Source: Lingula anatina (lineage: Eukaryota > Animalia > Brachiopoda). From it: a stretch of 64,000 nt of DNA. Below, piece by piece: positions 10,348 to 36,600 of the stretch. Both the position numbers and the translations under genes were made by a program. The stretch is taken from assembly GCA_051362555.1 (NCBI GenBank), contig CM120641.1, positions 9,238,001-9,302,000 of the forward strand. The letters run 5' to 3'. Positions within the stretch are counted from its first letter, which is position 1. Each line of letters opens with the position of its first letter. The notes under the pieces were generated by a model. That model was not told the DNA's origin and did not search any database. It worked only from the letters and a program-made list of their open reading frames with translations.

Positions 10348-10594
10348 TGTTTGTTGTGAAACTAAATTGTGCTTGTCTGATCGTCTTTCTTCTTTAAAAA
10401 GCAATTAGTGTAAGAGGAGATAAATAAGAATTTATCATCTTTGTAACCACATCTCTTGGATTTTAGTTTTTTGAAAAAAGTCTCTTTCAGTAATTTATGA
10501 TTTATTAATACGACAAGATCTTTTTTATTTTCATAAATGTCTCTTTATGATAACATTCTAAATGCTTAATCTAGTATCAATATAAAGATTTCAT

Positions 10595-10967: not shown

Positions 10968-11059
10968 TCATAAACTCTGGATGGCTCGTCTTGAATAGCA
11001 GAAGATAGTAAGAACCCGGATGCTACCCCATTCAATAGCATACCTTTTATTCCGTTTTA

Positions 11060-11204
11060 AAATGACGTACCGTAGATGACTATATTGAACATTTGAGGGA
11101 TATGGTATAGTATCGCCATTTTGTATGTGAAGCGAATATTTTACCATATACAGTACAAAATTGAGCTGAATATTCCCAATGAGGTAGCTGTGATGAGCTA
11201 AACT
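11060..11204 (+). promoter_or_regulatory. Putative promoter/5'UTR of the DnaJ-GW182 gene
   Basis: Local CpG enrichment, a CRE-like TGACGT at ~11063 and a YY1-type CGCCATTTT at 11114-11122, all shortly upstream of the ATG at 11205. Confidence 0.5.
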
Positions 11205-14200
11205 ATGGGATCATCGGAGAAGGAGAGGTCATGTGAGATTCTTGGAATCGACCAAAGTACGCCAGAAGGTACGATTTAAGAGATTGCAGACATTTTTCCG
11301 GGGTAAACAAACTCGCCGAATTAGGTCAACCCATCAAGTATGTATCGGTATGATGTGCAATTGTGTGTAATTTCTTCGTAAAATTTTAACACGTTTGCTC
11401 TCAGGAAGGGAAGATATTAACAGAACAGCACAAATATACTTAATGGCTTCATTGATTTTGCATGTGGTCTTTGCAATCTGTAAATATTGTGTTCATCCGT
11501 GACCTGGCGGTGTCACATATCTCACACTGTCAACGATTATGAAAGTCGTTTTAATCCTATAAAACAAATGATTTAATCAAAAAACAGATAACCAATCAAT
11601 CAGCTGTCTAGTGCATTAATGCATTCGTATTCGAATAATAAGGATTTCTGGATATTCAAAGTTGTAGAATTGTCACTATTGTAAGAACTGTCAGAACAGA
11701 TAAACCCCACCCCCTTGCCCCTTAAGCTTGGACTTATTCTTGGGATAATAGAAATTGTCATTTTAGTCAGAAGATATGCCAAGCTTATTACTCAGGATAT
11801 TAGATAGTTTGGGGATAATTGTCCATGAACATATATTGCTTGTTTCTGTACATGTTTCAAGCTGATTGAAATCATGGACATTCTGCTGAAAAAACAACTT
11901 GACAATCCAGGTGGCAAAATAAGCACAGTTATGTTGAAGTGATGCCTTTACTCACATTTTTCCATAGGAACTAGCAACTAGGGAAACCTGGTACTTAGTA
12001 ATATAATTTGAGATACATAATTAAACAGAAAACATATCACAAAACAATCTAATCACTTTCTTATGGTCTAATGTTTGAGATGCAATAATATCTCTAGACA
12101 TTTCCTATGCAAATCTTTCCTCAGCTTTATAGACTTTTTTTTCTGCACAGACATGCTGAAACTGTCGGTCAGATCGGTCATGTCTGGCAAAATTTATCTG
12201 GACCGGTAAAAAATTGGACGTGGTCGGTCCAAAGGACCGACAAGAGTTTTAAGAACCACCATTTTGAATTTATAGTCATCATTCGACATACTTCACTAAT
12301 AACATTATATAAAGCTCAAAGCATTTTTTCCCTTCCATTTCAAACTGACCACATTCACAAATGAAGTAAGCTACCTAATCGTAGTATCTGTCTCAAACAA
12401 ATAGGGTGATTTTCGGTCCGGCAAAAATCCATTCGGTCCGGCAAATTTTTCATTACTGCTGGTCCAAATGCCCGGCCATTCTGAAAAGTTTTCAGCATGT
12501 CTGCTGCAGTTTAAGGAGAAATACAACTGTGTCTTAGACAATTATATCTCTTAGACACAATTTGATATACAGAGAAAAGAGCACATTTGTTGCCATTTGG
12601 AAAGTGCTTGGTAAGTAAGAAAAAATGAACAGAACAGAACAGGGCAAACTTTAGTCTGCTGTTTAAAGGGATAATTACTCTTTGTATGAGATCTATATTT
12701 CACAATAAAAACATTGTGAATAACTCATAGAAATATAATATATTCTGTTTTACCACAAAAATGGCAGTTATAGCTATTATTCTGATATCTGAGCTTGTCT
12801 TTAGACCACATGACCTCCATTGATGGCTATACTCTGTTAAAATCTCTTAAGAGATTTTAACAAATAACCAAACTTTTTAGAAAAAAAACAGGGACTAACT
12901 TTGAATGTAAAAATGGATTCATTAACCATTGTTAAGTATGGGAAAATTGTTGTTTACTCCAGGAAAATTCATTTTTTGGCCGAAATGAAGAGTTATTATC
13001 CCTTTAACTTACCAGCGTGGACATTTGCTGATTTTAGTAATTTTTTAATCTGCACCGTGGTTGACTGGGAATGGGAAAGAAGCATTTACAGTGCACTTGT
13101 ATTTTCTTGACATCTTGTTTTTATCTACTATTTTTTACCATCCCATGATTGTACAGGCCGTACAACTCCTCTACAATGGCAATAAGTTGGATAAGAGAGG
13201 AATAAATTGACTCTTCATTGTTAGATATTATAGTCACATGGATTACTGAGTTAATCAGCACTAAGGTAAACCACCACAACTTGACCGAAATTACCCTTTT
13301 AGACACATGGTTGTGTACCAAGTAAGTTTTCAGTCAAACCTTGACAGGTAGACAGTGAGCTACCTGGCTGAAGGCCAAAATATAAGATTCTTCACATGCA
13401 CTGAATGTTTATATATATATAAGTAAATTAAGGGGATAACAACTCTTCATATTAGATTCATATTTCACAATAAATACATTATAAACAACTCATAGAAATA
13501 TAATAATATATAATATAATAATTCCATTTACCACCGAAACAGCAGTCATTGGAATTATTTTGTTAATAAAAACCAAACTTTTTAGAGGACAAACTCTGCA
13601 TGTCAGAATGGATTCATTTACCATTGGTAAGTATGGGAAAATGGTGTTTACCCCAGGAAAATCTGTTTTTTTACGAGCAGTTGTTCTCTGTTTTATTTTA
13701 GACATTTAGACGTTCTTTGCTGTTTGACGCCAATTTGCCTAAGCACAAATTTTTGTTGCAGTGCACCAATATATGCTAAATTTTTTTTAAAAATTACTCA
13801 CTGACACTTCCCATAAGAAAGTTATAACAAATTTATTGGCTACTCCAAACTAGCTAACATTTTATGGATAGACAAATAAGGTGTCAGGTGCATCAAGATC
13901 ACTACAAACATATACTAGAACAGAACGGATGACAGTAAGAATAAAAGATCAAATTCAGATGCTCTGTCTGTCACGTAAAGCACACATCTGTTATGATTAA
14001 AGCATGCACAGTCAACAAGTGTGTCGTTTCAGTATCTTCTCAATACGTTTTGAGCAACCACATTGTCTGCTGGAATTTTTAAAAATAATCAATAGATGGT
14101 TGATTTCCAAGAGAGGATCCATTGTCAACAAACACTCAGACGTAAACACAACCATAATATACTTTTAAAATGGTGTAGCATTTGCTCAGTGGATAATAAC

Positions 14201-15558
14201 ACACATAATATTATAGGGGATAGATGGCTTCAATAAAATGTATGGCCACATGTGAGGGTCCCATGGGGGGAGGGGGTGTGATCACAGTTTATGGGAAACA
14301 AAATCATCAGTTCACAAATCACAGTAAATAAAACTTTATCAGTATCTCACCAATAATGTACATCAGAAATCCTGTAAATCCTTGGGTTTAATGACTTTGT
14401 TTCATGAATGCCAGAGGATAAAAAAGCATTCTCAAGCATTTGCATTCACAAGTCGCAGGAATGGGGTGTTTTCAGGGATAACATAAATACCCAATTGGAC
14501 CCTCACACATGGACAAGAACTGCGAAAGACAAAATTTTACAGAAAAATTCCAAGGAGGTGTTCATTCTAATAAAGTAGTATTAACCCTGGATTTAGGTTT
14601 TAGGTTGTGGTTTAATCACTAGTGCTTTTTAAATTAAATTAAAATTAAAGTGACAGTATGACCATGTTTCTGTGATTTGACCATCAGGTACACCACTTTT
14701 TCTTTCCAGCAAATCCTCTCACCCCCACTCCCAATTCATTTACAGTGGGTCCTAAGGTTAAAACAGTCTCAACATATGAAGTTTTGTGGTTATGGTTGAT
14801 TACCTCCGCCAAGGAGGTTATGTTTTCACCCCTGTTTGTTTGTCTTTCTGTCTGTCTGTCTGTTTATCATCATCATAACTCAAAAAGTTATGGATGAATT
14901 TCAATGAAATTTTCAGGGTAGGTCAGAAATGGGTTAATTTAGAAGTGATTAGTTTTTGGTGGTGATCAGGATCAATAATCAAAAATAAAAAAACTAAGTT
15001 ATGGACGGATTTTGAAGAAATTTTCAGGAACTGTCAGAAGTGGGCCAAGGAACAGATGATTAGTTTTTGGTGGCGATCTGGATCAATAATCAATCAATAA
15101 TCAAAAATAAAAAACTAAATCATTATAAAATGAAAATTTAGGGGTGAAACGGCATTAGGTGGAGACTTTGCTGCCTTGGCAGAGGTCTGCGCTCTCGGAG
15201 TGCTTTTCTAGTTTCTCATAAGATGTTGAGCCTAGTTTCAAATCAAATACTACTTTACATGGTAACTTGTTGCTGATCACTACAGTCCTAAGTATGTTTT
15301 TATGTCATAGATGTCCTTGGAGATTTTATGTCCCTAATGCAACTGTACTGTTGCATAAGCATAGCCGAGTTATTTTTGTTCTTATTTTCTTCATGTTCTA
15401 ATTAATACTTTGGAACAGAAGCACTGTAAAGCAAATTAGTCTAGGATCCCCTCATACACATCTCAATATTCATATGTCAGTAATTTAATTTGTGCATTGT
15501 GTTTGTAACGCATTTGTTATCTGTACGAAGACTGAAATTAGGAATGTGCAAATCTACA

Positions 15559-15600
<42 letters not shown>

Positions 15601-18600
15601 TTTTTTTTTTTACTGCCACAGTGTGTACTGGTGTTTTGTGTTTGTAAATAGTAAAACAGTGCTGATCATGTGGTAGCCTTGCTATACATTGTGAACTTCA
15701 CCTGGCATAAAACCTGCTTATAAACACAAAATAATGCAAAAAAGATATATATTAATTAACTTTTATTTAATTTTAACTGGAAAACACTGCAACAAGGAAA
15801 AAATTAGATGATGTTGGTTTGGCTTTTATACAGATGTTGGTAGTTGCTATACTTGGTTCTAACAGTGAAATATGCTGCAGTAGACCCAGGGCTGAACACA
15901 TATTTGTATGATCACTGTTGTTGTCAGGGCTACAGGCATTGACTGTCAGCATATTATAATTACATTAGCACTGTGCATCATATAGTAATTTGCATGGAGA
16001 GGAAAAAAATGTATATTTCTGGATTAAGTCCCAAATACGTCTGCACATTTTTTTAAAGATCTATGGTACAGAGTTTGACTATTTGACCAATCATTATTGG
16101 CTGATTTTGGTGCATTTATTTTATGTCATTTTATAAGATTTGTATTAATTACTGTTTCAGTGTCCTGTCAATGAATGATATAACTCAATACAGATACTGA
16201 ATAAAAACAGATATATTCTGAAGCATGTACACTAACAATTTGATACCCAAAATGTGAACATGTAATATATGACACTTGTTTAGTATAACCTTCAACTTTT
16301 TTATGTTACATTCTTAGTTGACGTAGACATAAATACAGTGTTGCAGGTTGTTTTGACTTTTTTTATGTACAGACACATTTGTGTCTGTACATTTATCCAT
16401 CACCTGCATCTGTTATTGCTGTTGTGGACTTTCAAGGTTAAAAGGATAAGTGTAAAACAGTTCCATCTTATGTCTTCAATCTTACAGAACTGATGAATAC
16501 TCTTTAAGTACATCTCAAATTAGAAAATCAGCTTGATCATTTTTCCAAGAGTTATGCTGTTTTTTTCCCTTTTACAGAATATTTTATCCATTGTTATACA
16601 AATAAATAAAAACTGATACTTTTTGTTTACAAACTTACAGATATGCTGAATATTGATATTGTTGGTGCTAAGCATTATTTAATTCTGCACTGCCATTGCA
16701 TCTAAATTGACAAAAACCTTATTTTGGGCACTAACACCATTTTACTAGTAACCATTTAAGGAAAACAATGCAACTTCTTTAACATACAGAAAAGATTTAT
16801 AGGACTGAACTACAGGTTGAGTTGAAAAACCAGCTTGATTCCATTCTTTTTCTGGAAGTTATGCAGTTATATGGGACATTTTCATTTTTCACATATTGTC
16901 ATTTTCAATGTGGGACTTTGAACTCCCATGGGCATTAAACAGTTTAGTACTTATATTTTTTGAATGTCCTTGTTAGATAAAGTAGATGATAGCCCTCTAG
17001 AACCTCACTGAACTATATTCTGCAGCTGTTATCACAGGTGGTGGTGGTGGTGTCTTCAATACTTACCATTTCACCTCATCTGTACTCTGGCTCATGTTGT
17101 GATTAGCTGGGTTGGGTACAACATTGTCTTTCACCAAGCCTAAATATATGCATACATGTGTTGGAACTGGTATTTTCATCTGAAGTAAGGGTTTTAAAGG
17201 TTATTTAAATGAATATTTTGTCAGTTTATTGAAAATAATCCTGCATGTAGTGGCAGTGTACACTCTCAGAATCCTAGAGAAAATAGTGCTTATAAAAACT
17301 ATAATTGATAGAATTTGAATTTTATTATTATATATTATACTTATAAATTATATATTTTATACTTTCATTCAAGAAAGGAAAAAGTGATCATACTAGGTTA
17401 CTGATTTTTTTTAATGATGTCTATTAAAAACAGGACTGTATGCATTTCTAGTTTTAAGTAAAAACATAATTTCCAGATTATTGATATTTGTAAAGTCTGT
17501 ATAATATGAATCTCTCATTTAAAATATTATATGATGATTTTAAGTGACTTTTTTCTCTGTTATTCTTGATGTTTTTTGTATGACTATATCATTTTTATGT
17601 ACAGACACAGATGTGTCTGTACATATTGCCATCACCTGCGTCTGTCGTCGCCGTCCCTGTCGCCGTCGATGTCGCCGTCGCCGTCGCCGTCGCCGTGCAC
17701 TTTCATCGTTAACACGATAAGTGGAAGACAGTTTTACTTTTTGGCTTTATATTTACAGAGCTGATGAATATTCATAAAATGCAGGTCAAGTTCGAAAATC
17801 AGCATGTTTGGGCAATTATTGTAGTATTTATGCTGTGTTTTCACTTTTTAGCATATATGCAACACTGTTAACACATTTCAAGGAAAACCGATAGGCCTGT
17901 TGTCATAAAACTCACAGGAGTAATCAATCTTACTAAAACGCAGATCAAGTTCGAAAATCGGCATGATCAGGCCACTATTTTAGTAGTTATGCTGTTTTTT
18001 TTCACTTTTCAGCATATGTGCAACACTGTTAACACATTTCAAGGAAAACCGATAGACCTGTTGTCATGAAACTCACAGGAGTAATTAATCTTACTAAAAT
18101 GCAGGTCAAGTTCGAAAATCAGCATAATCGGGCCATTATTTTATAAGTTATGCTGTTTTTAAACATTTCCTCAGATTCAATTCTTAGGCATGTTAACAGT
18201 CTCATTATTTAACTAATAAGATTCGTAAAAGTGTTTGTTTGACATTTCCTGCATCTTTACAACATTGTTAGTTGATTATGTAAAAATGATGGTAAACTTG
18301 TTATCATGTATTGTATAATAGAGTTTCAAAAATGGAAATAAACTCATATCATTGCAGTTTGTCAGATTCATTCATTGACTATGTTCAGAAACTCAGAATG
18401 GAGGAAATTGGACATTAAACACTGTTCTATTGATATTTTTCCCATCTCATCAATTTTCTTAGTTGATCATATATAAATGGCAGTAAATTGTTAATTTTGT
18501 TATATGTTAAAAAATTGTTAAAAATGGGAAAAAAAAACATTTCAGGACAGTGCTGTCTTGTCTACATTTTGGCATTTTCAAGGTGTGACTTTGAAGTTCC

Positions 18601-21600
18601 TTTGGCCTGAAGACCTTTGCTAGGAACATTTTCTGAATATCCATGATACTAATATTTTATTATTAAAAATTGATGGTAATTATCCTGTTAAACATTATGT
18701 AATAGTGCATCAAAATTTGAAGACACCCCTATTTTGGACACTGCTCCCATGATGACCATTTAAGGAAAACCATGTCACTTACTGTTCTCAAACTTACAGG
18801 AAGAAACATGGGACTTAAATAAAGCTTCAGTGGGCAATGCAGACTATTTGGTAAATTTTTCTGGCAGTTAATCAGTTTTTTGTGAAAATTTAATTTTTCA
18901 CATATTGGCATTTTCAAATGTGACTTAGAACCTCCACGGGCTTGAAGACCCATACTAGTCACATTTTCTGAAAATCCATGATACATATATTTTATTATGT
19001 ACAGACACAGATATGTATGTACATATTGCCATCACCTGTGCCTGTCGTCGCCGTCGTCGATCATGTCGCCGTCACTGTTGCCGTGCACTTTCAGCATTAA
19101 CACCATAAGTGGAAGACAGTTTTACTTTTTGGCTTTATATTTACAGAGCTGATGAGTATTCATAAAACGCAGGTCAAGTTCAAAAATAAGCATGATCGGG
19201 CCATTATTGTAGAAGTTATGCTTTTTTTTCACTTTTCAGCATATATGCAACATCGTTAACACATTTCAATAAAAACAGATAGGCCTGTTCTCATGAAACT
19301 CATAGGGGTAATCAATCTTACTAAAACGCAGGTCAAGTTCGAAAATCGGCATGATCAGGCCACTATTTTAGTAGTTATGCTGTTTTTTTTCACTTTTCAG
19401 CATATGTGCAACACTGTTAACACATTTCAAGGAAAACCGATAGACCTGTTGTCATGAAACTCACAGTGGTAATCAATCTTACTAAAACGTAGGTCAAGTT
19501 CGAAAATCAGCATAATCGGGCCATTATTTTATAAGTCATGCTGTTTTTTCACATTTCCTCAGATTCAATTCTTAGGCATGTTAACAGTCTCATTATTTAA
19601 CTAATAAGATTCGTAAAAGTGTTTGTTTGACATTTCCTGCATCTTTACAACATTGTTAGTTGATTATGTAAAAATGATGGTAAACTTGTTATCATGTATT
19701 GTATAATAGAGTTTCAAAAATGGAAATAAACTCATATCATTGCAGTTTGTCAGATTCATTCATTGACTATGTTCAGAAACTCAGAATGGAGGAAATTGGA
19801 CATTAAACACTGTTCTATTGATATTTTTCCCATCTCATCAATTTTCTTAGTTGATCATATATAAATGGCAGTAAATTGTTGATTTTGTTATATGTTAAAA
19901 AATTGTTAAAAATGAAAAAAAAAACACATTTCAGGACAGTGCTGTCTTGTCTACATTTTGGCATTTTCAAGGTGTGACTTTGAAGTTCCTTTGGCCTAAA
20001 GACCTTTGCTAGGAACATTTTCTGAATATCCATGATACTAATATTTTATTATTAAAAATTGATGGTAATTATCCTGTTAAACATTATGTAATAGTGCATC
20101 AAAATTTGAAGACACCCCTATTTTGGACACTGCTCCCATGATGACCATTTAAGGAAAACCATGTCACTTACTGTTCTCAAACTTACAGGAAGAAACATGG
20201 GACTTAAATAAAGCTTCAGTGGGCAATGCAGACTATTTGGTAAATTTTTCTGGCAGTTAATCAGTTTTTTGTGAAAATTTAATTTTTCACATATTGGCAT
20301 TTTCAAGGTGTGACTTAGAACCTCCACGAGCTTGAAGACCCATGCTAATCACATTTTCTGAAAATCCACGATACGGATCTTTTATTATTAAAAACTGATG
20401 GTCATTATGCTGTTAAGCATTATGTAATATTGCATTAAAATAGAAGAAAACACAATTTTGGGTGCTGCTGCCATGATGACCATTATGGGAAAACCATGTT
20501 ACTTATGATTGTCAAACTTTGAAAAAAGAAACAAAGGACTAAAATGCAGCCTGAGTTGGAAAAGCAGTCTAATTGGCTTCTTTTTCTGGAAGTTATACAT
20601 TTTAGTGAAATATTCATTTTTATCATGTTGGCATATTCATTGTGGGACTCGAAGCTCCCATGGACATGAAGCCAAATGGTAATCAAATTTTCTACATGTC
20701 CATGCTATTTATAGTCAATAATCAAAAATTGGTGATAATTATTCTGTAATTTATTATGTAATGTTACATCAAAATTGACAAAAATCTTTTTGCACTGCTA
20801 CTACAAACATTATGAAAAGAAAACTATGTTACTTATTATTATTTTCAACTTACAAGTATGATTTGTAGGATTGGCATGCAGTTCAAATTAGAAAGCCAGC
20901 TCAAATGGGTTATCATTTATTATTGAATTTAAGCAGTTTTATGTGAAATTTTCATTTTTCTCATTCTGGCATTTTCAAAGTGTGAACTTAAACTCCCATG
21001 GGCCTGAAGCCTTACGCTTGTTACACATTTCACTTACATTGGTATTACCTGTTGAGCATAATTAAAATTTGATGTTGAATTTGCAGTTAAGCATAATGTA
21101 CTTTTGCATCAGAATTGACAGTAGCCTGTTTTGTGTATTGTTATTGTCTGCTTTTGTCTGTACATTTGACAGCTTTGCTGCCTTGTTTTACAAATATATT
21201 TAATAATGACATCATTCCATTTCGTATTGCCTCTTCAAACAACTATAACACTGCCATTCGATAACAGCCACAGTGTCATGGCTAGTATACAATATGTGAT
21301 GTCACGGTACTAATTTTTTTGGAGAAACAAAATGCCCCAACACACAGCAGCATCATAATTTGAACAGTAGATTCTCATTCTTCAATAAATTATAACTCAC
21401 AGTACAAACTTTCAGGTTGATTTTACATGTATTTTGTTAGCAGACAGATATTTATTTTCATAGAGTTATTTTATGCAGGATAATATCATTCGTATACATT
21501 CTGAACGAAAACATTACTGATGTTTATTTTATTTCCCAAACGGCATTTATTTAATTCAAACTCTTTACAATATAGCTTATCCAATATAACAATTTAAATC

Positions 21601-24600
21601 TAGTGACCCCTTGCCACGGCCTTTGCTCGCTCGTCACATGCAAGGGATTTTACGCAACACAAAGGTATTCGCGATATAGTTGCTCTATCAAGCAGTTAAA
21701 TTATCGTTTTGTTGTTGCATTCTCCCTAAATTATTTCTTTTTACACGACTGGTTCTTTTCTCATGATTGATTGACTTGCGAGAGAACGTCTATTTATAAC
21801 CTATGGTCTGTCTGTGTGTCGCTCCTCGTCTCGCCATTGGCTGATTAGTGCAGTGTTCAAGGCAGGGACGTTACATGCCCAGCTAAACTGTGATAATGCA
21901 GCACAATGTTCCTTTTCTCTCTTGCCAAGTTGTGACTTTGTGATCTCAGGGATATCTAGTCATTCCATACAACCTTCGGGGTAAGTTTCAGCTGTTTTAA
22001 AGTCCTAATGAAGCGGACGATCAGACGGGAGAGGTTGTTGTTTTGTTGCACAGATAGGTGACCTTTTTCTCCGCAGTCCACCATATTGAAAATGTGCCTG
22101 GATATCTCGTAAGGGAAACTGTATTGGTTGAGGAATTGTACGGCTCCGTGAGTTCAATTGATGTGTAAATTTTGTAAATCTTTTTCCAAGTACTCAAACA
22201 CCAAGTCTTGTACGTTTGTCGCTGTGGGAATTGAGTGAGTGCGTCGTTTGGTCACGTTTTTGATGTACCTGTCTAATCTTTGCATTCGAAAAAGATATCA
22301 GCTTTTGGTTAAATAGCTTATATGGAATTATAATCTCGCTCAGAGCGCGAAATGACAGATGTTGAACAACTATCCCTTTGTATTTGTTGTCTGCAATAAG
22401 ATATTTCTATATTAAAATAGTTATTTTTACAGATGAAGACTACTGTGTCTTAATTTGATTGGGCTATCAGCCGCCATATTGACCTAGATTTTAAGCGAGT
22501 TTGCCTTTTTTTTTATTATGATGCTATCATTCGCCAAGGAAAGAATTAGAGGAATGTTTATCAGTGGTTATCTCACAATATGATATTAACATATTGTTTT
22601 GCTGAAAGGTAGATTTATGTTATGAATATTTAATACTATTGTCATATTGAATATTATTAACTGATATATATAAATCAATGGGTAAGTCAGCGACAGATTG
22701 CTGTTTTTAAAGCATTGCTCATTGACACTTGAAGGTAGAACTGTTTAAATAATGGTAACGTGCACTATGTTCATGGGTTTATATTTAGAAGCACACACAG
22801 AAAGGATTTACTGCAGTGCTTTGGAAACTTGGCAGTTTTCCTAGTGATATGATTGAACTAAATAAAGGTGTGGGTAACCATGAATCACACAGGTTTTTTT
22901 TATTTATTGAGAACGTAAATGTGGTGAAGAGATGTAGCTTGCACTGTTTCAAAATTATGTTTGTTATTTACACAACTGATTGAAAAAGGTATGGTGAAAA
23001 CCTTATTTTCATCTGTTTGACAACTAGAATTAATTTAGAATCATAGATCTATCAATTTCTGACTCAGCACATAGCATTTTAGTTTAAATGTAATCACTTA
23101 TCATGTGATAAACTGCTGAATGATTTTTTCTTTTTCTGTCTTTGTTTAATTCAGTTATTTAAGCTTCCAATTTTGTTTTAGAACCTGTAGCTAAGATATT
23201 GTAGACATTTTAACATAGTTAACTGACAAAAATAAATGTAAAATCAAAGCTCTTTTGTTATATTGTTGGTCCTACAGTTCTTGTGGGTATATTTATATAG
23301 GTTCTTGATCTGGAAAGAAAGTATTTACCAAGCCTAATACAACACAGTGTAAGATTTAAGTAGAATGTATCCAAGGACCTGTATTGGTCTAAGAATTTAG
23401 GCAGGTAAGTTGTCTACATGTAATAACTTCTTGATGAACTTCACAATCCAGAGGTCAGTAGTTGAAGGAATGGCAGAATTTAAAAAGTAAAGGGACTTCC
23501 TAATTTTCCCAGATTGTAATGACGATTTTGGAGTGGGGGGGGGGGGGGGGGGGATCAAGGAGGTTTGTTAGTCAGAGAAAGGTACTCCTGGAATTTTTTT
23601 CTTTTTTTCATGGGGGTGGGGTGTCTTTATACTGCACATCTTTAGTTATAAGGATGCATCGCACTAATTTATTCTCCTCCCAGGCCCTTATGATTTACAT
23701 TCTTTTTCCAGTTGATATCCAAAGAGCATATCGCCATCTTGCCCTCCAGTACCACCCTGACAGATGTAATAATGCAAACGTAAGTATCAGGAAAATATTG
23801 CTAAAGGCTATTTAATGATTTAGCACCAAATATCTACTCAAGCTAAGGAGTCTTTAGTGAAAGTTTTGCAAGCTGGCATTAAGACAGACCTTTTGGTTAA
23901 TATTTAAAAATATTTTTTTCTTCTTTGAATTTATATTGCAAAACTATATCCATTGCAGTTAAGTTTGGCTTCTGACTTACACTGCACTTCAGCACATCTT
24001 TTTGTCCGAGTCATTTTGTGACTGTGCTAATGAAGGTTATTGTAAATAATTGTAAATAATGATTTGTCAACCACTAAGAATGTATCACAGCTCCCATATA
24101 AACTAAGCATCAAGCGGATGACCTGGATTGATATTCTCAGCTGCTGTATTCATATTGTTAAAAAATCAATAACTGTGGAAAAGCCAGCTTGATAACAGCT
24201 TACTGCATATAGTGTTAACTGATGGCCCTGCAACAGATTGCATACGGTGCCTTAGTCTGATCATCACCTGTGAGAGGAAATTGTTTGGCGTGGTATATTA
24301 ATTTTTTTTTTAATCAAATATGGGGGTGATTGAAAGCAGAAGTGTGAATTTAATTTAATCTTATTTCTGAATTGCAAGATTAATTTAAGTAAAGTATATT
24401 GAGAAGGTGTGAAGATAAAGGTCTGTTATTCAAAAACTAGTTGAATATCAAAGGTGGTGATTTGGCATAGTTAAAGTTTTGAAAATGTTTGAAAATTTGT
24501 GAAATACTTGACCCATGAGGAAATATTCATACAAACAAAACTACAAAATAAATTTCAAAATATTAGAAGTGATACTCACGACCAAGAACTGGGCTTTCAA

Positions 24601-27600
24601 CCATTACCCAAAGCCTTGATCACTTCGACACAAGATGTTGATGTTGTTATTTAACAGGAATTGGAGAAGTGCTGCCCAATCAGTCGAATGATATATTTTA
24701 ATATCATTTATTTAAATATAAGATTTATATTCATATTGTTACCACAAAATATTGTGTGTGTACTTATAATTTGAAAAGTGTTATTGAAAAGGAGAAAAGG
24801 TTTTAAATCTGGTTGACTTGGTGAAAAGCATGAGAGAGGTCTGTTGTTTAACAAATATTTAACTGGTTTAAATCTTTTTTATGTAGAATATGTTGTGTAT
24901 TAAAATGAACCCCAAATGATCAATGTAATGTTTTTTCCAGGATTTTGCCAAATTTCAGTTGATTACGACTGCCTACAAACAACTTTCCCCTGGTAAGCCA
25001 TTTTGATTTTAAGCCAAAATAAACAGTCCATTTAGGAACAGATAGAGTGGGTCACTTTTGAATGTCGATATCGTTGAACTGATTGAAGTTTTTTTATATT
25101 ATTCAGGAGAAATTTTTGTACTTTGCTTTGTTTAAAATGATTTTTGTCTTTTTTCTTTAGATCTTGAAAGTCTGTCCGATCCTGAACAGGTAGGGTTTTT
25201 TTTCTCTATTATAGCTACTAGTTACATTTCTACAAGGCATTTTATCTTATCCACATCCCTAAGCCTAGGTCCCAACTACGTTTTGGACGCACGGTTTTTG
25301 GGTTCCTTGCATCCGGCTAGGACGTAGCTAGATCGCAGGGAAAAAATCAAGTAAATAGTGAAAAGTTTCTACGTGCTGTTTGCGTCCTCCAAAAGTCACA
25401 TGATGGACGTGCTCCTCACGGACTAACTCCCACATTTTCCCCATTTTATTTGGCCGTAGACCACAGGTAGCAGCCCGTACATTTGGTTTGGACCTAGGCT
25501 TTACTCAAGTTTGTTACTCTCACTGGTGTTGGGAGCATTTCCACAACTTATGGTTGTTTATCTGCATTTTTATGAGGAAAATATTTATCTAACTGTTTTC
25601 ATATTGTTCAAGTAGAATAGTCATAAATAAGAGTGAAATAATAAGTTTATGTCAACCCAGCTACTAGAAATAAAAATGTCCATTTCAATCCTGCATTGTG
25701 AACCAATATTTTCTCTGTGTTTCATACTCTAAATGTTGTCCATTTACTTTGCTTTTAGATTTTCTTTACTGTGTTCAAAGATGTGCTTTTATACGAAGAT
25801 GATGGAGGTAGGTTTAAATTGTTATTTTGTTTTGATCTACAAAGTTTTTCTTTTGTATTTGTATCAGTGTTTAATAATAATTACATTTAAATAAATTTTC
25901 TGAATGGCATAGACTTTTATTGTGCAAATATTCATGTGTTGAATGTACTGATATGAGATGTGTTTGTTTGGTGCAAGCATTAGTTTAATACAGATCTGCA
26001 GATTTTGTTTGGCTAGTCTAGTCCCAAATATTTATCAAAAAAAAAAAAAACATACATACATACATACGAGTATGTATTCATTAACTGCATGAAAGTTTTT
26101 TTTTCCTTTTTCTAGATTACGGTCTTTATGCATTTTTCTCAAGTAGTCAAATACTAGGTGAGTAGAATGGCTATTTCTCTTTGTAAGAAAGTTTTCAATA
26201 ATAGGACAGCTTTGTTCTTAAGAACAGGATATTTATGTACATTGGTGTACAATGATAGGATGGCTGTGTACTTAAACGGGCATACAAAGTGGTTTTAGTT
26301 AGATATTATTCACAAAAACAGTCACATCATCAAACACTCTAAACAAACAAGATCTATTTCGAATTTAATGTCTAACACACGCCCAGTATGTAGAAATAAA
26401 AAACTAAAAATTAAATCAACATCCCGCAATTGAAACACTCCTTGCGTGTCACGTGAGCCAGACACTAGCCGAATGCGCAGGCGTACCACGTGACTGCCCT
26501 AATTTAGCAAGTCAATGTAGCGGACAATGCGAAGAAAAAACTTTAAAGCACATAAGAGGGTTAAAAAAAAAAGACAAAACTTATCTGAATAAAAGTAGGA
26601 TTATAATAGAGAGGGCAATGGAATGTCAACAGAGGTAAATAAGACATTAAACATTTGGAGACCTTGCACTGAGACAACATCGAATGATGCAATGGTCACA
26701 CTGGTTAGGATGCCCTGATAGTATTATATAGTAGTAAAAGGTGTACACGCAGTGAATGAATTGTGCGCGCGAAACCCGTTTTCAAAGACAGCAGAGCGTA
26801 AAACTGAATGTGAAGAATGGACAAAATAAGATGTTGAAATCGCGTTTTGTTGAATAATATACACATCAAATGGTGATGATTATTTAAGTATACAATTTAA
26901 GACACCATTCTTATATCATCTCAACAACTATGACAGCACCCTCCCTTGGTTTGTATGCCCCCTTAAGTGCAGGATATCTATAAAAACCCTGGAGTATTGT
27001 CAGGATTTTAAAATGGCTTTTCCAGAGTGCATTTCTTTACTTCCTCTCCCCTTTTCTCCCTGAGTACAAGTCACCTATTCAAAGAATTTTAGCAAGCCTT
27101 CGTAGAGGCTGGGCAACTTGCTCGCTTAGCACTTGATATACATTATAAATTGGGAGGGAAACGTTATTTTGTATTTGACTTCTTTCTTTATTTTTTGGTC
27201 AATTTTCTGTCTTACCAGGTGCTTCAAAGTCCTCTGCGGATGAGATGTACATAGAAGATGATGAGGATTCAGATACAGGAGAAAAAGATTTTGAAAAATT
27301 TGCAGAGATTGTAAAGGTAAGTACTGTGGATTTCATGTTGTATCAATGGCCAAAGGTGAAATTTTTTAAAACAGTTGATTAGTGTATGTTGCATGACACT
27401 TTTTCCATTTAGTTACGTATTGAGAACAGATGAGGTAATAGTTATTTTTGTTTGTTTGTTTTTAAAGAGGAGCAGCTGCATATGTTTGAACAAGTGGTAG
27501 TGTTTTAGATTTGCTGTATCAGTAGGTTAAAAAATACAAGGATAGATATATGAAACGTTTTTCTGACTGTATTCTTGCCAAAGTTATGTAAGCGACAAAT

Positions 27601-28379
27601 TACCTTATTTTTCTACAAAAATAAAAGATTGTGTTGATATTGAAAAACCATTGTGGTTAATCCATAACTTGTGCTTCTGCAAGTGCATTCTGATAACTTT
27701 AAAATTTGCGATAGGTTACAGTGTGAGTCACCAAGTTGTATGGTCAGAAGGCTGGTACTTAACTGAAGTACATACCACTTCCATGATAAGTGATGGAATT
27801 GAGTATACATGGATAATAGAGATGTTGCAGCAGAGGACAGCACTCAAGATGATGTTTTTATAGCCAATTTTAGTGTCTGTTCTTTTCCCTTTCTATATCT
27901 GTGCAGTTTCTCTTTAATTTTTATGTTTTTGGAAAAAGGTTAGATTGATGTGTTCCATTTGAGGGTTGAATGGCTGCTTAATTAGATGGAGCTATTGATA
28001 CTTATGAAGTCGACTATATTTAGGAATTAGTTTGATGTCTTAGTATTTATATTACTTGGGACCTATTTTCAATGCCAAGTTTAAAAAAAAGGCAACCCTT
28101 GCTTTTACTAAGTAATGAACATGCAGGGATAATAGTTGTGAAGCGGTTATCTTCACTTATCAGTCCTTGAACACAAATATTTGTTGCAGTTTGAGAAACT
28201 CCAGTTCCTTGTCTTGTTTTCATGTCTTTTCATCCCAGTAGAAAAGTTACTAGAGATGTCATTGGTGGGTTTTAGGGTGCATAAAAGCTTCAGGTTGTAC
28301 ATAGTTGGGAGGAAGACCCGGACTTTTTAACCCCAGATTTGCTACTGTGTGCGTTTATTCCAAATTTGGAATCTTGGGG

Positions 28380-28450
<71 letters not shown>

Positions 28451-30616
28451 CTGTCATCTTTACAGCCTATTGTAAGGTGTCTTTCACATTTACAGAATTG
28501 CCGTTTAAAAGGGAAACCTGTGCCTGAAGGCTTCACAGATGAGAGAATAGAGGAGTTAAGAGAGATTCTTATCAAAGAAAAAGAAGCGTACAAAAACGAC
28601 GGAGCTCAGAATCCGTCTCTGACCAAAATCAAACAACCAAATCAAGTGCCTCTTGTAAAGGTGAGAAATGGTTATTATTTTGTCTGGATTTTTATAAGGG
28701 ATTGGATAGGATATTGTTTTTGTGAATTTTATGTACTTATGTGTACTACTGAAGAGAGTAAATAATTGGTGCCCATAAATTGATATACTTGGGGTTATCT
28801 TTTCTTCAAAACTGATAGGCATGCTTCTTAACTGAGAGATGGTTGAGGTCTGATAGATGTTTTCAGACATCATTTTCGAAATTCTGAAGTGCTGAAATGT
28901 ATTAATTGACTGAAAAACTTTTTTAGAATATTAACTGACTTATAAGATGAGTGAAATTATTATTATTTTTTTTTGGGGGGGGGGGGGTGACAAAATGAAA
29001 AATGCTACAATCCGTTTATTTGGTCTTCATTTTTTTAAAAGCAAAAGCCAAAGTCGAAGAAGCAGAAAGAAAAAGAAGCTTGGAGGCGGGAGAAGGTAAG
29101 TGAAGTTAATTTAATTGATAAAAAATGTCCCATTTGTTAAGGGAGGCGGGAGTTACAGCAGATGTAATAAAAATTTTTGACATTTTATTTCCAGTGAATT
29201 TTTTAATGTTCATTGCAGGAAATGGAAAATATCGCTTATGCGATACAAGAAAGAAATAAACAAGAGGAAGAACGTGCAGAGAAAAAGAAGATAGTAAGTA
29301 CAAAAATATTGTTTTTGAAATTAGCCGATGTATGTTATGTTTGACCTTATTCAGACTTGTGGAAAAGTTACTTGTTTTTAAGGGACATTTAAAGTTGGTT
29401 CTTTTTGTTTCTTATATTAGGCAGAATTAGAAAAACAGCGCCGCCTTGAAGAAGAAAGAGCTCGCCAATTAGCAGAGGATAAAAAAAGAAGAGAGCAGTA
29501 AGTTACCAACCTCTGATTGTCAAAAAAGGGATAGATTTGTTTAGGTGCTGCATTGAGATATGGTCTTGACAGGCAATATATCTATCATATAATTCAAGTA
29601 TTTTGTTTAAAAAGGGTGAAGTGTATTTAATTATCTCAATTGGTCAAATTACAGAGAAGAGCGTGAGCGCAGAGAGCGTGAGGAGGAAGAAGTGCGTAAG
29701 AAGGCTGAAGAAGAGAAGCGTAAAAAAGAGGACAAGAAGAAAGCTGCAGAAGCAGCTAAACAGAAGGTAGGCCATTTTCATTGCAAATTACGCCGTATTG
29801 TTGTTATGTGATTATTTTCTCACCTTTTTTCAAAACTGCCTGCTTCTGAGCCCCACTAGAAATGACCTTAAAGGGATAATAACTCTTCGTATGAGACCTA
29901 TATTTCACGATAAAAACCTTGTGAATAACTCATAAAAATATAATATATTCTGTTTTACCACAAAAACAGCAGTTATAGCTTTTATTCTGATATTTGAACT
30001 TGTCTTTAGACCACGTGACCTCCATTGATGTCTATACTCTGTTAAAATCTCTTAAGAGATTTTAACAAAAAAACAAACTTTTTAGAAAAAAACCAGGGAC
30101 TAACTTTGAATGTAAAAATGGATTCAATAACCATTGGTAAGTATGGAAAAATTGTTGTTTACTCCAGGAAAATTCATTTTTTGGCCGAAACGAAGAGTTA
30201 TTATTGCTTTAAACATGGCTGTAAAATTGATGAATTTAAAAAAAGGGTAAGCAAAGTCATAAAATTCATGAGTCTACAGTAAAACTGAAATATATTTTTG
30301 TACAGCAAATAGTTGACCAAAAAGCCAAAGAGGAGGAAGAAAAAAAGAAGGCTACAGCTGCCAAGCAGAAGAACCAAGCACAGCAGCAACAGCAAGCATC
30401 CACCCAGCAGCAACTGCAGCAGCAGCAACAAAGACAGTATCAGCTGCCGCCTCGGTTTGCTCAAAAACAGCAGCAGAAGAATAAGATGCAAACAGTGCCA
30501 CCTGGTGGCCAGAATTGTGGTAAGTTTAAAATTAAAGTGATGACAGAGTATTAAATTAAATTCAGTTATGCTTAATATTCTAATTGCTTCATTTGCCTAA
30601 AGAAGGGTTCAACATT

Positions 30617-30691
<75 letters not shown>

Positions 30692-33600
30692 GACTTAGCT
30701 GATCTTTTGACTGTTTAGTGTTAATTATTGGAATGTTTCAATTTGCAGATACAGAAAGTCAGGAAATTGGTACATGGCAAAACCCAGAGGGTGACTCTGC
30801 CAATCCTATTCTTACTTGGGGTAATCAGGCCTCTGCCAGCAGCAGTGGTAGTAGTGATATTATTGTGGATAGTCGGGACAAAGAGCAGTGGCCATCCATT
30901 GGTGACCAGTCTGAATCTGCATCTGAGGCAGGTGACGACAACGCATCTGTCCATTCGGGATCTGTGATATCTAGCTCAAGCAATCCAGGACCAGACGGGG
31001 GTCAAGGTCAAGGGTCAAGTGCCATTCAAGGTCAAAGTGCTTCCAGTGATTGGGGAGCCAACTCTTCTGACAATAAATTAGACTCAACAACATCCTGGGG
31101 AACTAGTAGTCTCTCTCCAGGAGGTGCCAACAACTCAAACTCATCATCTGTTTCGTGGGGGGAATCCATTCCCTCCCAAGCTGTGAACCAAGGACATAAT
31201 ATGCAAGCCAATAATAATAACCCAAACTCCCCCATTGAGTGGGGTAGTTCCCAGCAGAATTCCATGCCAGCACAAGGCACAGAGCATGGACCAACAAACC
31301 AAGGTGCTCAAAGTAGTAATGGTAGCAGAAACTCTCCTGCCACCACTGCCAACTCATGGGGAGGTATTTCTTCTTCAAGTCGTCCGTCTAGTGTCCAGAG
31401 CCTGGGGGATGTTGCAACCAACAGCAAGGCAGATATGAAACAAGGAGCTTCACAATGGGGGATGATGGTGCCACAAGAGTCCTCTGCTAGCAACAATCAA
31501 GGAGATAGTAATGGCAAGGTTGGTGAAATCAAACGGGGAAATGATATGCGAGGAACTAGTCAATGGGGAATGACAACCCAGGGCTCCTCAAGCTCCAGCT
31601 CCTCCAGCAGTGGCAGCCAGTGGGGAAACGTGTCAAAAGATGAGAAAAGTTCCATGAGAGGAGGATCAGGTTGGGGTAGTCCCAGCCCAACGCCTAGTCC
31701 AAGTACCAATACAGGAGACTGGGGCAAGTCTGCATCCAGTGTCCAGCAGCCAAACAGTTTACAGTCCATGTGGGGAGATCCCACAAACAGTGAGAGCTCT
31801 CAGTGGGGTGGGGGCAGTCACTGGGGGCCAGCTCCAGGGAGTTCCCAGAGAAGTGATAGTGGCAGCAGTGGCAATAGTTCCGGCAATCAGCGTAGTGCCA
31901 AAAGAATTGGATCATGGGGTTCAGGAGGGGGTTCAGTTGGTCAGACTGGAAGCTGGGCCAACAGCAATTCAAGTGGCAGGGATTGGGGAGAGTCCCAATC
32001 AGGCCAACAGTCTCAATGGGGGAACAATGGTGCCAGTCAGTGGGGCAGCAGCAGTGTAGGGCAATCACAAACAGCCGGGTCAGGATGGGGTGATGCCACC
32101 GGCACTTCCCAGCAACAGAACAATCCAGGCGAAGGATGGGGTAGTGGAACAGCCACTCAGAACAATGGGTCAGACCAGTGGGGGAGGCAGCCTACGACCA
32201 ATCAGAAGGACCCTTCTCAGCTCAACCCAAACAACCCCCAGGGACAGTGGGGAAATGTTCCGTCACCCACCAACTGGGGAAGTGCATCGACACAAGACAA
32301 CTCCCAGAGCCAGTGGGGTAATATGCCAGTGCAGAACAATGTAGCAACTAATCAGTGGGGTAATGGTGCCCCTCAGCATGGAAACAGTTCACAGGGGGCA
32401 TCCTGGGCTGGAACTTCACCAGGACCCACCTCACCCGCAGCATGGGGTAGCGGGAGCTCGTACGCCAAAGTTCTGAGCCACAATCTTCCACAGCCCCCAC
32501 CGTCTCAGCAAAAGCCTGCCAAATCAGCATTTGAGGAAGAAATAAGCCGCCAAGTTGATAGCCATGAAGGGTGGGGCATGCGTCCTGTTTCTCAAGACAC
32601 TAACTGGGATGCAAAGACCTCCCCAGAACCAAAGCGTAAAGCACGTCCAGAAGATGACTCTGTGTGGCGCCAAGAAGTGAATAATGGTACAGCCATATGG
32701 GAGTCTGTGAAAAATACATCAGGGAAACCTGCCTTCGAAGAAAAGCCTGTTGTGAGAAATGATAATTCCATTACCTGGTCTGGACCTCCAGCCCAGCAGG
32801 CACCGCCTCCTCGCAATGACACCAGTGCCTGGGGTGGGGATGCAACTACAGATGGCATGTCCTGGGGAGGAGCTGGACCTGCCAAGGAGAGATCTTGGCC
32901 CAGTGGGGCAAACAATCCTCCTGCAGCTGCTAATACAGCCGCCACGCCAAGCAATTGGAACAAACCCCCACCCACCAACAATGCCAGCTGGGGTGGCCAG
33001 GAACCGCGTCCTCTGCCAACACAGTGGGCTGGGGCTACCAACAACTCTGCTCCACAAGATGGATGGGGCGGAAGTGGATCTGCACCAAGAAGTTCCCAAT
33101 CTTCTGCTAGAGGATCGACCTCCTCTTCTGGATGGGGAGATGATGTGAAGCCAGCTACTGCTGGGAAGTCTACTGGTGGAACTGGATGGGGAGCACCATC
33201 CCCTCCTACCAATCGCAAGTCCACAACGGATGTGGATGATGGTACTGCTTTCTGGGGTGATCCTACTCAGCCTACACAATCAAAACCCCAGAACTGGAGT
33301 ACCCCGAGTACTCCCAATACTCCAATCACTCCTTCAACTAATCCAGTGTTCCCAGGCCAGAGACCTAAATCTGGTGATATGGGGGGTGCCATGTGGGGCC
33401 AAGGACCCCCACCCCCCAATATGCCTACCTCTGGAGGTTGGGGAGATGCTGCTAATCCAATAGCCAACAAAAGTGAGGAGGTCTCTTCCATGTGGCCTGG
33501 TCCTTCTCAGGTAGATATTGCATGAAAATTATGTTATATTTTTATGTCAGCTTATGCATTTCTAAAATATAATGGCTTACGTTTTTTGAGGATGTCCAAT

Positions 33601-36600
33601 GTGGTAAATTGTGCCTGATCATCCCTGTTGAATTCATTAGAGCATACTGCTTATTACAATTCCAGAGCTCCAGCGGTTGGGGTGATTCATCTGCCAGTCA
33701 GTGGCCGGTAGGTGGTGCTAAGCCAAAGACCCCGTCTACAAGTGGCTGGGAAAGTGATAGCATGCAGTGGAATGCACCAGGGCCTCGTAAGGTAGGCGAT
33801 CATACTGGTTTGCAGGGTGATCAAACAAGCAGGCGTTTGCTGAATGGGTACAGTGGACCTGGAAATGACTGGAATCACCACAGGGTAAGAGAAAACATAA
33901 ACTGCATGACAAGGGGTTCAACTGAATATCACTTTCCTTGGTTGTTCAAATATACTGTCTATGGCAGTTAAAAGGTAATTTTTTTAAACAGTCAAAAATC
34001 TGTACGTCATGCACTTTGTGATTCTATCAAATCTAACCAATATGAAGTAATTGCTGTGTTGTGAAGTGTACATAATGGACTTGGGTCAGAATGGATACAG
34101 AGATATTTCTAGGGAAGTACATTGAAAATTGATGTTTGAATAAATAAAGTCGATATTTGTCATCAGAGTTCCACATCTGTATCCAATCTTGGCTCTTCAT
34201 TAAGATGCAGGAAACAAGGTTGTTTTGAACATTCTGTTCTCTGCTTCCTAATGGTGAGAGTAAAGTATAGGTCAGAAAGGCTGAAACCACAATCAGATGC
34301 AAAGCAGCAAAGGCAAGCCACATTTTTTCTCTTGTTTCAAACCTAACCTGGTGTGGGCTTGTTACTAGAGTGGTGTGTGCAGTGCTTGTGTAGCAACTAA
34401 ATCATCCCCCCCTCCCAACTAATTTGATTGTCAGTATTAATTATGCGGGAGCCATTGCTCACTGTTATCATGATGGGATAATAAATCTCAAGTATAGACC
34501 ATCCTTATTATTCAAGGTCACATCATTATATGTAATGTAGTTGGCTTTTGAAAAATGGTTTTTGAAAAATAAGTGAATAAGCCATTTTTTGGACACTCAA
34601 AGAAAGATATATCTTGTGTCCCATTGTTTAAATTTTGAATAAATATGTGTAGCTGCACTTTACATGCATTTCTTCACTTTCAGACCAGTGAATCCAGCTG
34701 GAATGATGAGAACTGGGCTGAGACTGAGGTTGGTGAGTGGGACTCTGCCCAGGAAAACTCCACCTGGAACAGTGCACAAGGATGGACTAACAGAAATGGT
34801 GCAAAGAAAATCACTGGAATGCCCTTCTACAACAAAAACTCAGCCATTGTAAGTAGCAGATTGTTCTCGATGCAAAGTAGGCTTCTAGTTGGCTCTAAAA
34901 AGTATGAGGAATTGGGCATCAATGAGATAAATAATTTTCAGTTAGGATGAATCTATGTTGTAAGACTTGATTTTACATGTGGACCTTTCTTCCAGGGTGC
35001 TAAATTGAGTAGTCTTAACATGAATCCTCAACAGCCTCAGATGCGTAGCAGGCTGCTTCAACAGCTGACTGAAATGGGATTCAAGGTAACATGCTTTTCC
35101 TTTACTATTTGCATTACAACTTTAATGATGGAAAAATGTGTTATGATATGTAACATTATGAACTGGGAAAAACAAGGTATTTTCAGCTTGGCCTTAACAA
35201 TTCTAATTTGCCCTTGTGTTGTTTTTCATTACAGAAAGAAGATGCACAAAATGCTTTAATAAGCAATAACATGAATCTTGAAAGTGCCATTGGTAAGTGT
35301 AATGAACTTATCTTGTACATTAAGTTGTTATAGTGGTATCATCCTATATTGTTGTCTCATTTAGTCATTCTGTTGTTGATTTATTGCTGATGGTTGTAAA
35401 GTTAAGGGTGTTGGTTTGTTAGACTTTGGAATCATTTCCAACTTTCTTACATATTGCCATTTCATTTTAGCTGAACTCTTTGCTGGTGCTAATATGGACA
35501 AGCGGGATGATAATGACTTGGACAGAAAGAATCGCAACATTCAACGCCAATTCTCCGCTATCCATCAGCAAGACAAAGCAGACTTTGACAACAGTGATCC
35601 GTTCTCTCAAAATACTCCAAATTTATCCAATGCTCAACAACTGCTAGGCAAGCAGGGCAGTGTCTCTTCTAGTCCCAATCCCAGTATTAATCCAGTTGCT
35701 CTACAACAAAGGCTTCTCATGCAACAACAACAACAACAACAGCAGCAGCAACAGCAGCAGAACATGCCACCATCTCAGGGTCAGGTGCTCCGCGGTCAAG
35801 TCCCTAACATGGCCGCAGCGGCAGCCTCTGCTGGCGTGTCTGCTTCTACTCAGCAACAGCTTCTCCAGCAGCAACAGATTGTGCAACAGCTGCAGATGGC
35901 AGTGCGTGCAGGCCTGATAAATCCTCAACTCCTGAACCAGCAACTCACTCCACAGATGTTGGTGCTACTTCAACAACTGCTTCAGCTTCAGACCATTCTT
36001 CAGCGGCTCGTCCAACAGCAGCAACTGCTGCAGGCCAATAAGACGGGCATGAACCCTCTTCAGCAACGCTCCCAAATGGAGCAGAATGCTGTGGTGATCC
36101 AGACCATAAAGCAGAAGATCCTGCAACAGCAGCAACAGATTGCTCAAGCTCAGCAAGCCATGGCAGCATCCTCAGCTGCCAAGGATGCTCTTTCCAGTCT
36201 CCATCCCAAGATGACTAGTCTCTCTATCAACGAAGATTCTCTTCTCCAGACGCCAGCTGGTGCTCCCCAGTCACGTCTCACTCAGTGGAAACTGCCCTCC
36301 CCAGACAAAGAAGTGAATGAGTACTTAGACAAAGCTCCAGGCTCCAAGCCCTCCAACATTCATCAATCGCATTCCACACCCAATCTGCAAGACAAGCTGG
36401 ACTTCTCTTCCTCTCTCAGTGGAGACAGTATGTGGTCCACTTCAGTCTCCTCGTCCACGGCCGGCTCCTCCTGGCCTACTTCCAGTGCCATAACCTCCAG
36501 TGCCCAGCTTTTGGTCAAGGATAACAGCCCAGCCCAGTCTGACAACAAAGAATCTCAATCGTCCAATAGCAACAGTCAGTCTACCACACCAGTATTTGAT

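Follow-up and report, generated by a model that had tools for sequence, protein, structure and literature searches.

We analysed a 64,000-nucleotide stretch of the Lingula anatina genome (contig CM120641.1 of assembly GCA_051362555.1, positions 9,238,001 to 9,302,000 of the forward strand; hereafter the window, whose coordinates are used throughout), which carries on its + strand a gene for GW182/TNRC6, the adaptor that microRNAs use to silence messenger RNAs. This gene has two first exons: a minor one, exon 1a, opens an N-terminal J domain with an intact HPD motif, and a major one, exon 1b, does not. A preliminary description of the locus had joined 13 small exons to the GW-repeat exon in matching phases, and the joined exons indeed form a single stop-free frame from ATG 11205 to 33510 (1287 codons). 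RNA evidence comes from six of the nine raw-read runs offered for the species (X1, X2, X3, X4, X7 and X9; 6-30% of each); X1-X3 are stranded, and no run has long reads. The parts of the gene are as follows.

11105..11268, +, exon 1a (first exon; start at about 11105-11150, coding part 11205-11268): leader with three upstream open reading frames (uORFs), ATG 11205 and J helix I; sense reads in X1-X3 and a junction to 23712 in 4/4 runs
21900..21980, +, exon 1b (alternative first exon, beginning approximately at 21910 or earlier): stop codon in frame at 21941-21943, J-less transcript; 21980>23712 reads
23712..23779, +, exon 2: J helix II and HPD; PF00226 at 29.1 bits
24941..24992, +, exon 3: J helix III; frame and homologue alignment
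25161..25189, +, exon 4: linker, then the beginning of the post-J helix; frame and homologue alignment
25759..25807, +, exon 5: amphipathic, conserved post-J helix, the DIF-like segment of the preliminary description; helix-V-like position predicted in a homologue
26116..26157, +, exon 6: short post-J helix; corresponding block missing from one Owenia isoform
27219..27316, +, exon 7: Met111 (ATG 27245), the predicted J-less start, with an acidic linker and a helix; the same Met starts the records P0242, P0246 and P0131
28496..28660, +, exon 8: two conserved helices at the end of the post-J region; homologue alignment
29042-29095, 29219-29293, 29421-29497 and 29655-29766, +, exons 9-12: E/K/R-rich long helix, with Met209 at 29222; junction reads
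30306..30519, +, exon 13: last part of the charged helix, then a Q-rich stretch and the PPRF motif; 29766>30306 reads
30749..33510, +, exon 14: GW/WG-repeat region of the Argonaute-hook type; 49 Trp and 36 GW/WG in 920 codons
34951..35259, +, open reading frame (ORF) with the beginning of a UBA-like segment, by eye against homologues; ORF limits, not exon borders
35380..37143, +, ORF encoding the Q-rich/M domain and a silencing region that includes PAM2 (PF12938, E 3.7e-7; PF16608, E 3.4e-11); ORF limits, not exon borders
37837..38298, +, last coding ORF, with RRM and stop (PF00076, E 3.6e-6); best named homologues TNRC6/Gawky

The J domain and its place in the GW182 chain

Exons 1 to 13 are 64, 68, 52, 29, 49, 42, 98, 165, 54, 75, 77, 112 and 214 nt long, have AG/GT borders and agree in phase throughout. 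These borders are the AG/GT sites nearest to the exons proposed earlier; because they had been chosen, the naive phase probability of (1/3)^13 was discarded as a fair null. The GW exon has no start codon close to its 5' end, and a stop at 30554 would end the frame if the intron before it stayed in. Membership of the GW182 family is shown by the GW/WG-rich N-terminal region, by the M domain and PAM2-containing region, for which both Pfam profiles score above their cut-offs, and by a C-terminal RRM closest to TNRC6/Gawky; the Pfam scan of the window gave no match for Ago_hook. Between the J domain and the hooks, residues 190-320 are 62% E, K and R.

The Pfam scan was taken on separate exon and ORF stretches. 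The exon-2 stretch alone passes the DnaJ profile (29.1 bits against a cut-off of 27.8, E 1e-6); exon 1 alone has no Pfam DnaJ match. Against a J profile built from 5 homologues with the window left out, the spliced window sequence scores 66.8 bits, falling to 46.3 when exon 1 is removed. Donor 11268 gives the best match to helix I (E 0.0014; next best 0.41) of the 255 open phase-1 donor candidates that lie in 7701-23711. The HPD (residues 36-38, nt 23753-23761) lies between helices II and III, which, with the profile match, places the domain in the J family; HPD is the motif through which J domains stimulate Hsp70. Helix I has Cys where 4 of the 5 homologues have Tyr, and X9 reads mapped on the exon 1a region (10500-11900) show two variant sites, one of them residue-changing (S18N). 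The open frame, 5 of 13 junctions seen in reads and collinear single-chain homologues together put the J domain at the extreme N-terminus of the GW182 chain, as in cnidarian GW182.

Two first exons in the RNA reads

Mapping was done on 10950-30949 for X1, X4, X7 and X9, where 15 of 313 joints were listed, most of them from repeats in intron 1, and on 10500-11900 alone for X1, X2, X3 and X9, for the junction 11268>23712. In the latter, loose read ends correspond to the opening 30 nt of exon 2 in 4/4 runs (5, 7, 6 and 13 reads; agreement 1.0). Exon 1a is transcribed on the + strand from about 11105-11150, and depth drops past 11268. The commonest junction into exon 2 is 21980>23712, with 88/22/19/23 reads in X1/X4/X7/X9 and a longest side of 70 nt. 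We take exon 1b, into which none of the listed joints leads, to be a true first exon. Exon 1a accounts for about 5% of first-exon reads in X1 and about 36% in X9, and X4 shows no depth on it; these figures are rough since the counts come from separate mappings. Depth on exon 2 is close to the sum of 1a and 1b reads (91 versus 88+5 in X1, 32 versus 23+13 in X9, 23 versus 22 in X4). The J-bearing form described earlier thus exists, but as a minor transcript; the dominant exon 1b had been overlooked.

Further downstream, reads join 29095>29219 (62/14/24/17, same order of runs), 29293>29421 (75/19/22/24) and 29766>30306 (66/7/19/22), each in 4/4 runs; the last of these and 11268>23712 are two of the junctions that the preliminary description had singled out for checking. 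The junction from 29497 to exon 12 is also seen in 4/4 runs (57/17/10/18), via an in-frame allele longer by 15 nt. The joint at 29655-29658 is displaced in 4/4 runs, and X1 has 19 letters there in place of 4, an allele that lengthens the charged helix by 15 nt and keeps the frame. Reads give direct evidence for at least 5 of the 13 model junctions; the remaining 8, 30519>30749 among them, are absent from the 15 of 313 joints listed, and hence are neither seen nor refuted. Implied exon depth is fairly even in X4, X7 and X9, at 17-33x on exons 2, 5-8 and 9-11. In addition, 61/14/24/30 reads cross the ends of the mapped stretch, a number comparable to upstream exon depth; as X1 and X9 have no depth at the left end, these reads fall mainly at the right end (30949), inside the GW exon. 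One transcript very likely spans exon 1a to the GW exon.

In exon 1b a stop at 21941-21943 closes the frame, and no further in-frame ATG occurs before Met111 (27245), which is followed by Met209 (29222); most transcripts would therefore give a J-less protein from Met111. That exon-1b transcripts begin translation at Met111 or Met209, without the J domain, is likely, and a non-AUG start within exon 1b would still leave helix I out. The Met111 equivalent is kept in 5/5 bilaterian J-bearing sequences and is absent from Nematostella. J-less records starting at this Met account for 1 of 8 Lineus sequences, 1 of 3 from Owenia and 3 of 3 from Tubulanus, and the database isoforms named X3 of Nematostella and of Branchiostoma belcheri also have no HPD.

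The context of ATG 11205 is strong, with A at -3 and G at +4. Three uORFs of 1-2 codons precede it at 11125-11201, the last ending 3 nt upstream, and translational control is possible. A reverse CCAAT-like pentamer was noted by eye at 21836-21840, before exon 1b.

Intronic repeats at 12284-13007, 17590-21190 and 29626-30292, which include a direct duplication about 1389 bp apart, show 100-700x RNA depth drawn from other copies. Elsewhere in the window, also on the + strand, a nuclear receptor gene lies upstream (2438-7698), with a C4 zinc finger (PF00105) closing ORF 2438-3802 after a long acidic N-terminal region and, by eye, ligand-binding-domain-like exons that end at 7698. Downstream are two tandem BTB and C2H2 zinc-finger paralogues (41277-43737 and 54587-57431; 84% identity over 575 aa), non-LTR reverse transcriptase-like fragments (50108-51082, by eye) and two near-identical ORFs 575 bp apart (45692-46602), which suggest a tandem repeat unit.

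Relatives and the post-J region

Searched with the RRM, a set of 1.84 billion representatives yielded 319 matches, of which 150 were listed. The J region of the window is matched by 3 of 220 proteins (117 of at least 900 aa; many are redundant oyster records): Ptychodera XP_070580602.1, B. belcheri KAI8512270.1 and B. floridae C3ZJT1. Pfam finds DnaJ in the first two, which are single chains with an N-terminal J domain and C-terminal UBA/RRM or PABC-binding domains; C3ZJT1 is truncated. Residues 1-215 of the Ptychodera protein as query gave 4 matches among 748 candidates and added Lineus longissimus, Owenia fusiformis and Nematostella, all with PF00226. Our own J profile matches 20 of 266 proteins, all from Lineus, Owenia, Ptychodera, Branchiostoma or Nematostella, with the training sequences among them. 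No J or post-J match was found in the protein models of 7 mollusc genera, 2 starfish, 8 arthropods, Polyodon and Myxine, and exon 8 as query matched 0 of 21 candidates.

The window is collinear with its homologues along the whole N-terminal extension, namely Lineus longissimus XP_064639340.1, Owenia fusiformis CAH1795036.1, Ptychodera flava XP_070580602.1 and Branchiostoma KAI8512270.1 and XP_078692795.1. J-domain identity across 5 homologues is 56/50/48/39/35%, with 48-56% to Lineus, Owenia and Ptychodera and 35% to Nematostella; the HPD is invariant and the basic helix II kept in 6/6, and residues 102-189 are 40-49% identical to the 5 homologues. Nematostella vectensis GW182 (XP_032234471.2) shares the N-terminal J domain with HPD, the post-J region (40% over residues 102-189), the charged helix, PPRF, UBA and RRM, and a J-less X3 is on record there too. 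It differs in that the window copy comes from a bilaterian and its GW region is much larger, and in that the J-less form here is predicted to start from a Met that Nematostella does not have. The preliminary description had supposed a bilaterian GW182 that retains an intact N-terminal J domain as in Nematostella, and had called for a survey of such proteins; homologue alignments and a quick tree of C-terminal regions (26 rows) support the former. In this tree the window falls within Lophotrochozoa (SH-like approximate likelihood ratio 97) and outside molluscs (100), its order with Owenia and the nemerteans not being settled.

Contrary to what that description implied, the feature is not peculiar to this genome: the same architecture occurs in nemertean, annelid, hemichordate, cephalochordate and cnidarian models and is therefore likely an ancestral architecture, not a one-off fusion. 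J-GW182 was likely ancestral to cnidarians and bilaterians, with several later losses or missed annotations. J+ and J- records both exist in Lineus, Owenia and B. belcheri. The homologues in the four bilaterian genera are database gene models, the names of which are silent on the J domain, whereas in the window both first-exon junctions are shown by RNA reads. The earlier suspicion that annotation can split or miss the gene is supported. The B. belcheri records XP_019614958-60 (P0221, P0222 and P0224) are N-terminal halves of GW182 named 'stress response protein NST1-like', but they end frame-shifted inside the GW region, not at intron 1. The partial GW182 model Saccoglossus XP_077869661.1 (P0111) begins with an exocyst Sec3 fragment; it is probably mis-joined, so that the true N-terminus is concealed.

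Vertebrate TNRC6A long forms (GW220/TNGW1 and GW195) and Drosophila Gawky share GW hooks, UBA, Q/M, PAM2 and RRM with the window gene. The Polyodon, Myxine and 8 arthropod models differ in having no J or post-J match; for human and fly, absence of the J domain is taken from papers. A PPRF motif after the charged helix recurs from Nematostella through Polyodon TNRC6A, where it follows a K/E/R-rich stretch as in the window (32 of 155 long proteins), and may link the window to the vertebrate TNRC6A extension at the level of the motif. In the available passages of Zielezinski et al., this extension is described as having no invertebrate counterpart (PMC4615383). The isoforms of mammalian TNRC6A are distinguished by their N-termini alone, and GW220 was the only one to nucleate P bodies (PMC3514032, in part).

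Structure models were made on homologues from Lineus and amphioxus, with 5-6 sequences. The model of Lineus residues 1-179 (pLDDT 79, pTM 0.76) has helices at 2-12, 21-35, 45-62, 73-85, 94-98, 122-139 and 150-178. The amphioxus model repeats this helix order and adds a continuous helix at 192-299; its overall pTM is 0.33 because the remainder of the chain is disordered. Helices I-III of this Lineus stand-in fit J domains with deviations of 1.0-2.0 A across some 50-57 residues, but helix IV is non-canonical. A PDB sequence search gave 65 matches; the 60 listed are all J-domain proteins and cover profile positions 1-79 only. Residues 63-101 are acidic and hydrophobic in the window and the 5 homologues and do not form the Gly/Phe-rich linker of class A/B Hsp40. 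The DIF-like segment of the preliminary description begins a conserved helix of a separate post-J helical region and does not lie in a G/F-rich linker.

Helix V of DNAJB6 (96-104) blocks Hsp70 binding (PMC10624832, in the passages available). Lineus model residues 3-82 align to DNAJB6b 1-106 (Z 6.3, root-mean-square deviation 2.3, 76 aligned), a range that takes in this helix; the alignment is of one homologue and is given as a range only. The model weakly suggests that one post-J helix sits where the inhibitory helix V of DNAJB6 sits, and the DIF-like segment may be the gate. The post-J helix may cover the face that binds Hsp70 until it is set free, a tentative idea which we hold slightly less probable than its opposite. 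With DNAJB6 and DNAJB1 the window gene shares J helices I-III and a Phe-bearing helix after J, predicted in a similar place; unlike them, it has no G/F-rich linker, canonical helix IV or class-B client domains, and further helices follow. Structure searches of the whole J and post-J models gave these helices no clear match beyond J-protein rows, and ESM Atlas gave no usable match for the post-J region, which indicates neither absence nor novelty.

Possible roles of the J domain

J-domain stimulation of Hsp70 is established biology (PMC3840309, in part). The J domain of the window very probably stimulates Hsp70 as well. We lean towards reading the gene as a lophotrochozoan GW182/TNRC6 with a minor J-opening and a major J-startless first exon, the J form of which would be a built-in, probably gated co-chaperone activating Hsp70 at Argonaute-GW182 complexes for remodelling or recycling. 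The J-bearing form would likely bring Hsp70 to the silencing complex. The GW hooks would hold Argonaute, spaced from the J domain by the charged helix of about 110 residues; we give even chances to Hsp70 acting on the assembled miRNA-induced silencing complex (miRISC) or on GW-bodies after loading, and not on empty Argonaute. A J domain tethered on the same chain as the silencing scaffold would then remodel or recycle Argonaute-GW182 complexes. The Nematostella GW182 orthologue binds Argonaute and recruits CCR4-NOT, and its C-terminal domain alone represses (PMC5314787, in part); the J domain is therefore not the silencing effector.

Next in our ranking, and unlikely, is a role in Argonaute loading, in which the J domain would bring Hsc70/Hsp90 to empty Argonaute and the loaded complex would be passed on directly to the GW hooks. 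For cnidarians, such a role was proposed by Moran et al. (2013; PMC3840309), and in Caenorhabditis elegans DNJ-12 connects ALG-1 to HSP70 and is needed for loading some miRNAs. The same work shows that free J proteins already do this job, and, in the passages available, that DNJ-12 is not found on active miRISC (PMC11194074), so that the post-loading stage stays free for a tethered J domain. Most transcripts at this locus also have no J domain. GW hooks, moreover, prefer RNA-loaded Argonaute. Droj2 is a free Hsp40 for Argonaute loading in Drosophila. DNJ-12 and Droj2 resemble the window gene in placing a J domain next to Argonaute and Hsp70, and differ in being separate proteins that act before loading, whereas the J domain here shares one polypeptide with the silencing scaffold.

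We consider it improbable that the J domain is vestigial here, mostly part of an untranslated leader and drifting toward the loss seen in other lineages. The low use of exon 1a (about 0-36% of first exons), the three uORFs, the helix-I Cys and the S18N variant would fit such drift, but 48-56% identity to Lineus, Owenia and Ptychodera, an invariant HPD, the strong start context and the recurrence of the J+/J- pair in other phyla would not. Ranked level with this is a closed module of J and post-J helices that has a partner other than Hsp70, or that only guards the aggregation-prone GW/Q regions of GW182 itself. The pTM of 0.76 over J and post-J suggests one packed unit, and in the model the canonical helix IV is replaced and low-rmsd matches (by root-mean-square deviation) end at about 55 residues; the HPD and basic helix II kept in 6/6 are what one would expect with Hsp70 as the partner. 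Last, and very improbable, the J and coiled exons would belong to a gene of their own or to a short transcript that does not reach the GW exon. The absence of 30519>30749 from the 15 of 313 joints listed, the ATTAAA hexamers at 30531 and 30550 with a stop at 30554 on intron retention, and the N-terminal-only models of B. belcheri all speak for it. However, both sides of 30519/30749 are collinear in single Ptychodera and Branchiostoma chains and, by eye, in Lineus; the GW exon offers no start near its 5' end; the reads over 30949 (61/14/24/30) fit upstream exon depth; and the B. belcheri models break inside the GW region.

Several points weigh against a co-chaperone acting on assembled complexes. 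The J-complete form is a minor transcript with three short uORFs. Eight of the 13 junctions, including 30519>30749, lie outside the listed joints, in runs without long reads, and two ATTAAA hexamers stand in the intron before the GW exon (background 2.5 per kb). Against an unbroken transcript, exons 5-8 (25624-28958) have in X1 only an implied depth of 18-37x compared to about 90x on exons 2 and 9-11, possibly reflecting sample-specific skipping of the post-J region. The fold is predicted for homologues and not for the window protein, and Foldseek gave no match at E<=0.001 for the Lineus model, though its top rows are J domains. The Z of 6.3 to DNAJB6b is middling for a helical protein, with only the aligned range given, and mitoribosomal J-protein entries score higher (7.3 and 6.8). 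Absence in molluscs, echinoderms, arthropods and vertebrates is based on protein models alone, and true loss is therefore not demonstrated.

J-bearing GW182 is known in cnidarians (PMC3840309 and PMC5314787, in part). Within the passages available, Moran 2013 gives the DnaJ domain as absent from bilaterian GW182 (PMC3840309), and Zielezinski 2015 finds it only in Nematostella among 448 genes from 185 genomes (PMC4615383). In the open-access literature, supplements aside, we found no report of a bilaterian J-GW182 or of a J+/J- switch; as bilaterian models are already public with the domain computed, this is an unreported pattern and not an unseen sequence. More speculatively still than the gate itself, promoter choice in the cnidarian-bilaterian ancestor may have toggled a self-gated Hsp70 co-chaperone module of GW182. 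The post-J bundle would then be a regulatory domain not described so far, vertebrate TNRC6A would keep a J-less remnant of the module as its long N-terminal extension, and J+ isoforms would set the rate of miRISC condensate remodelling by tissue or condition. The natural J+/J- transcript pair provides a built-in control, with exon 1a removed and exon 1b kept, for a chaperone role in miRISC after assembly. 'Absent' in molluscs or echinoderms may mean an overlooked minor first exon. With the J domain present in four bilaterian phyla and in this genome, a supposed cnidarian oddity becomes a likely ancestral feature of GW182, lost or unannotated in the usual model animals.

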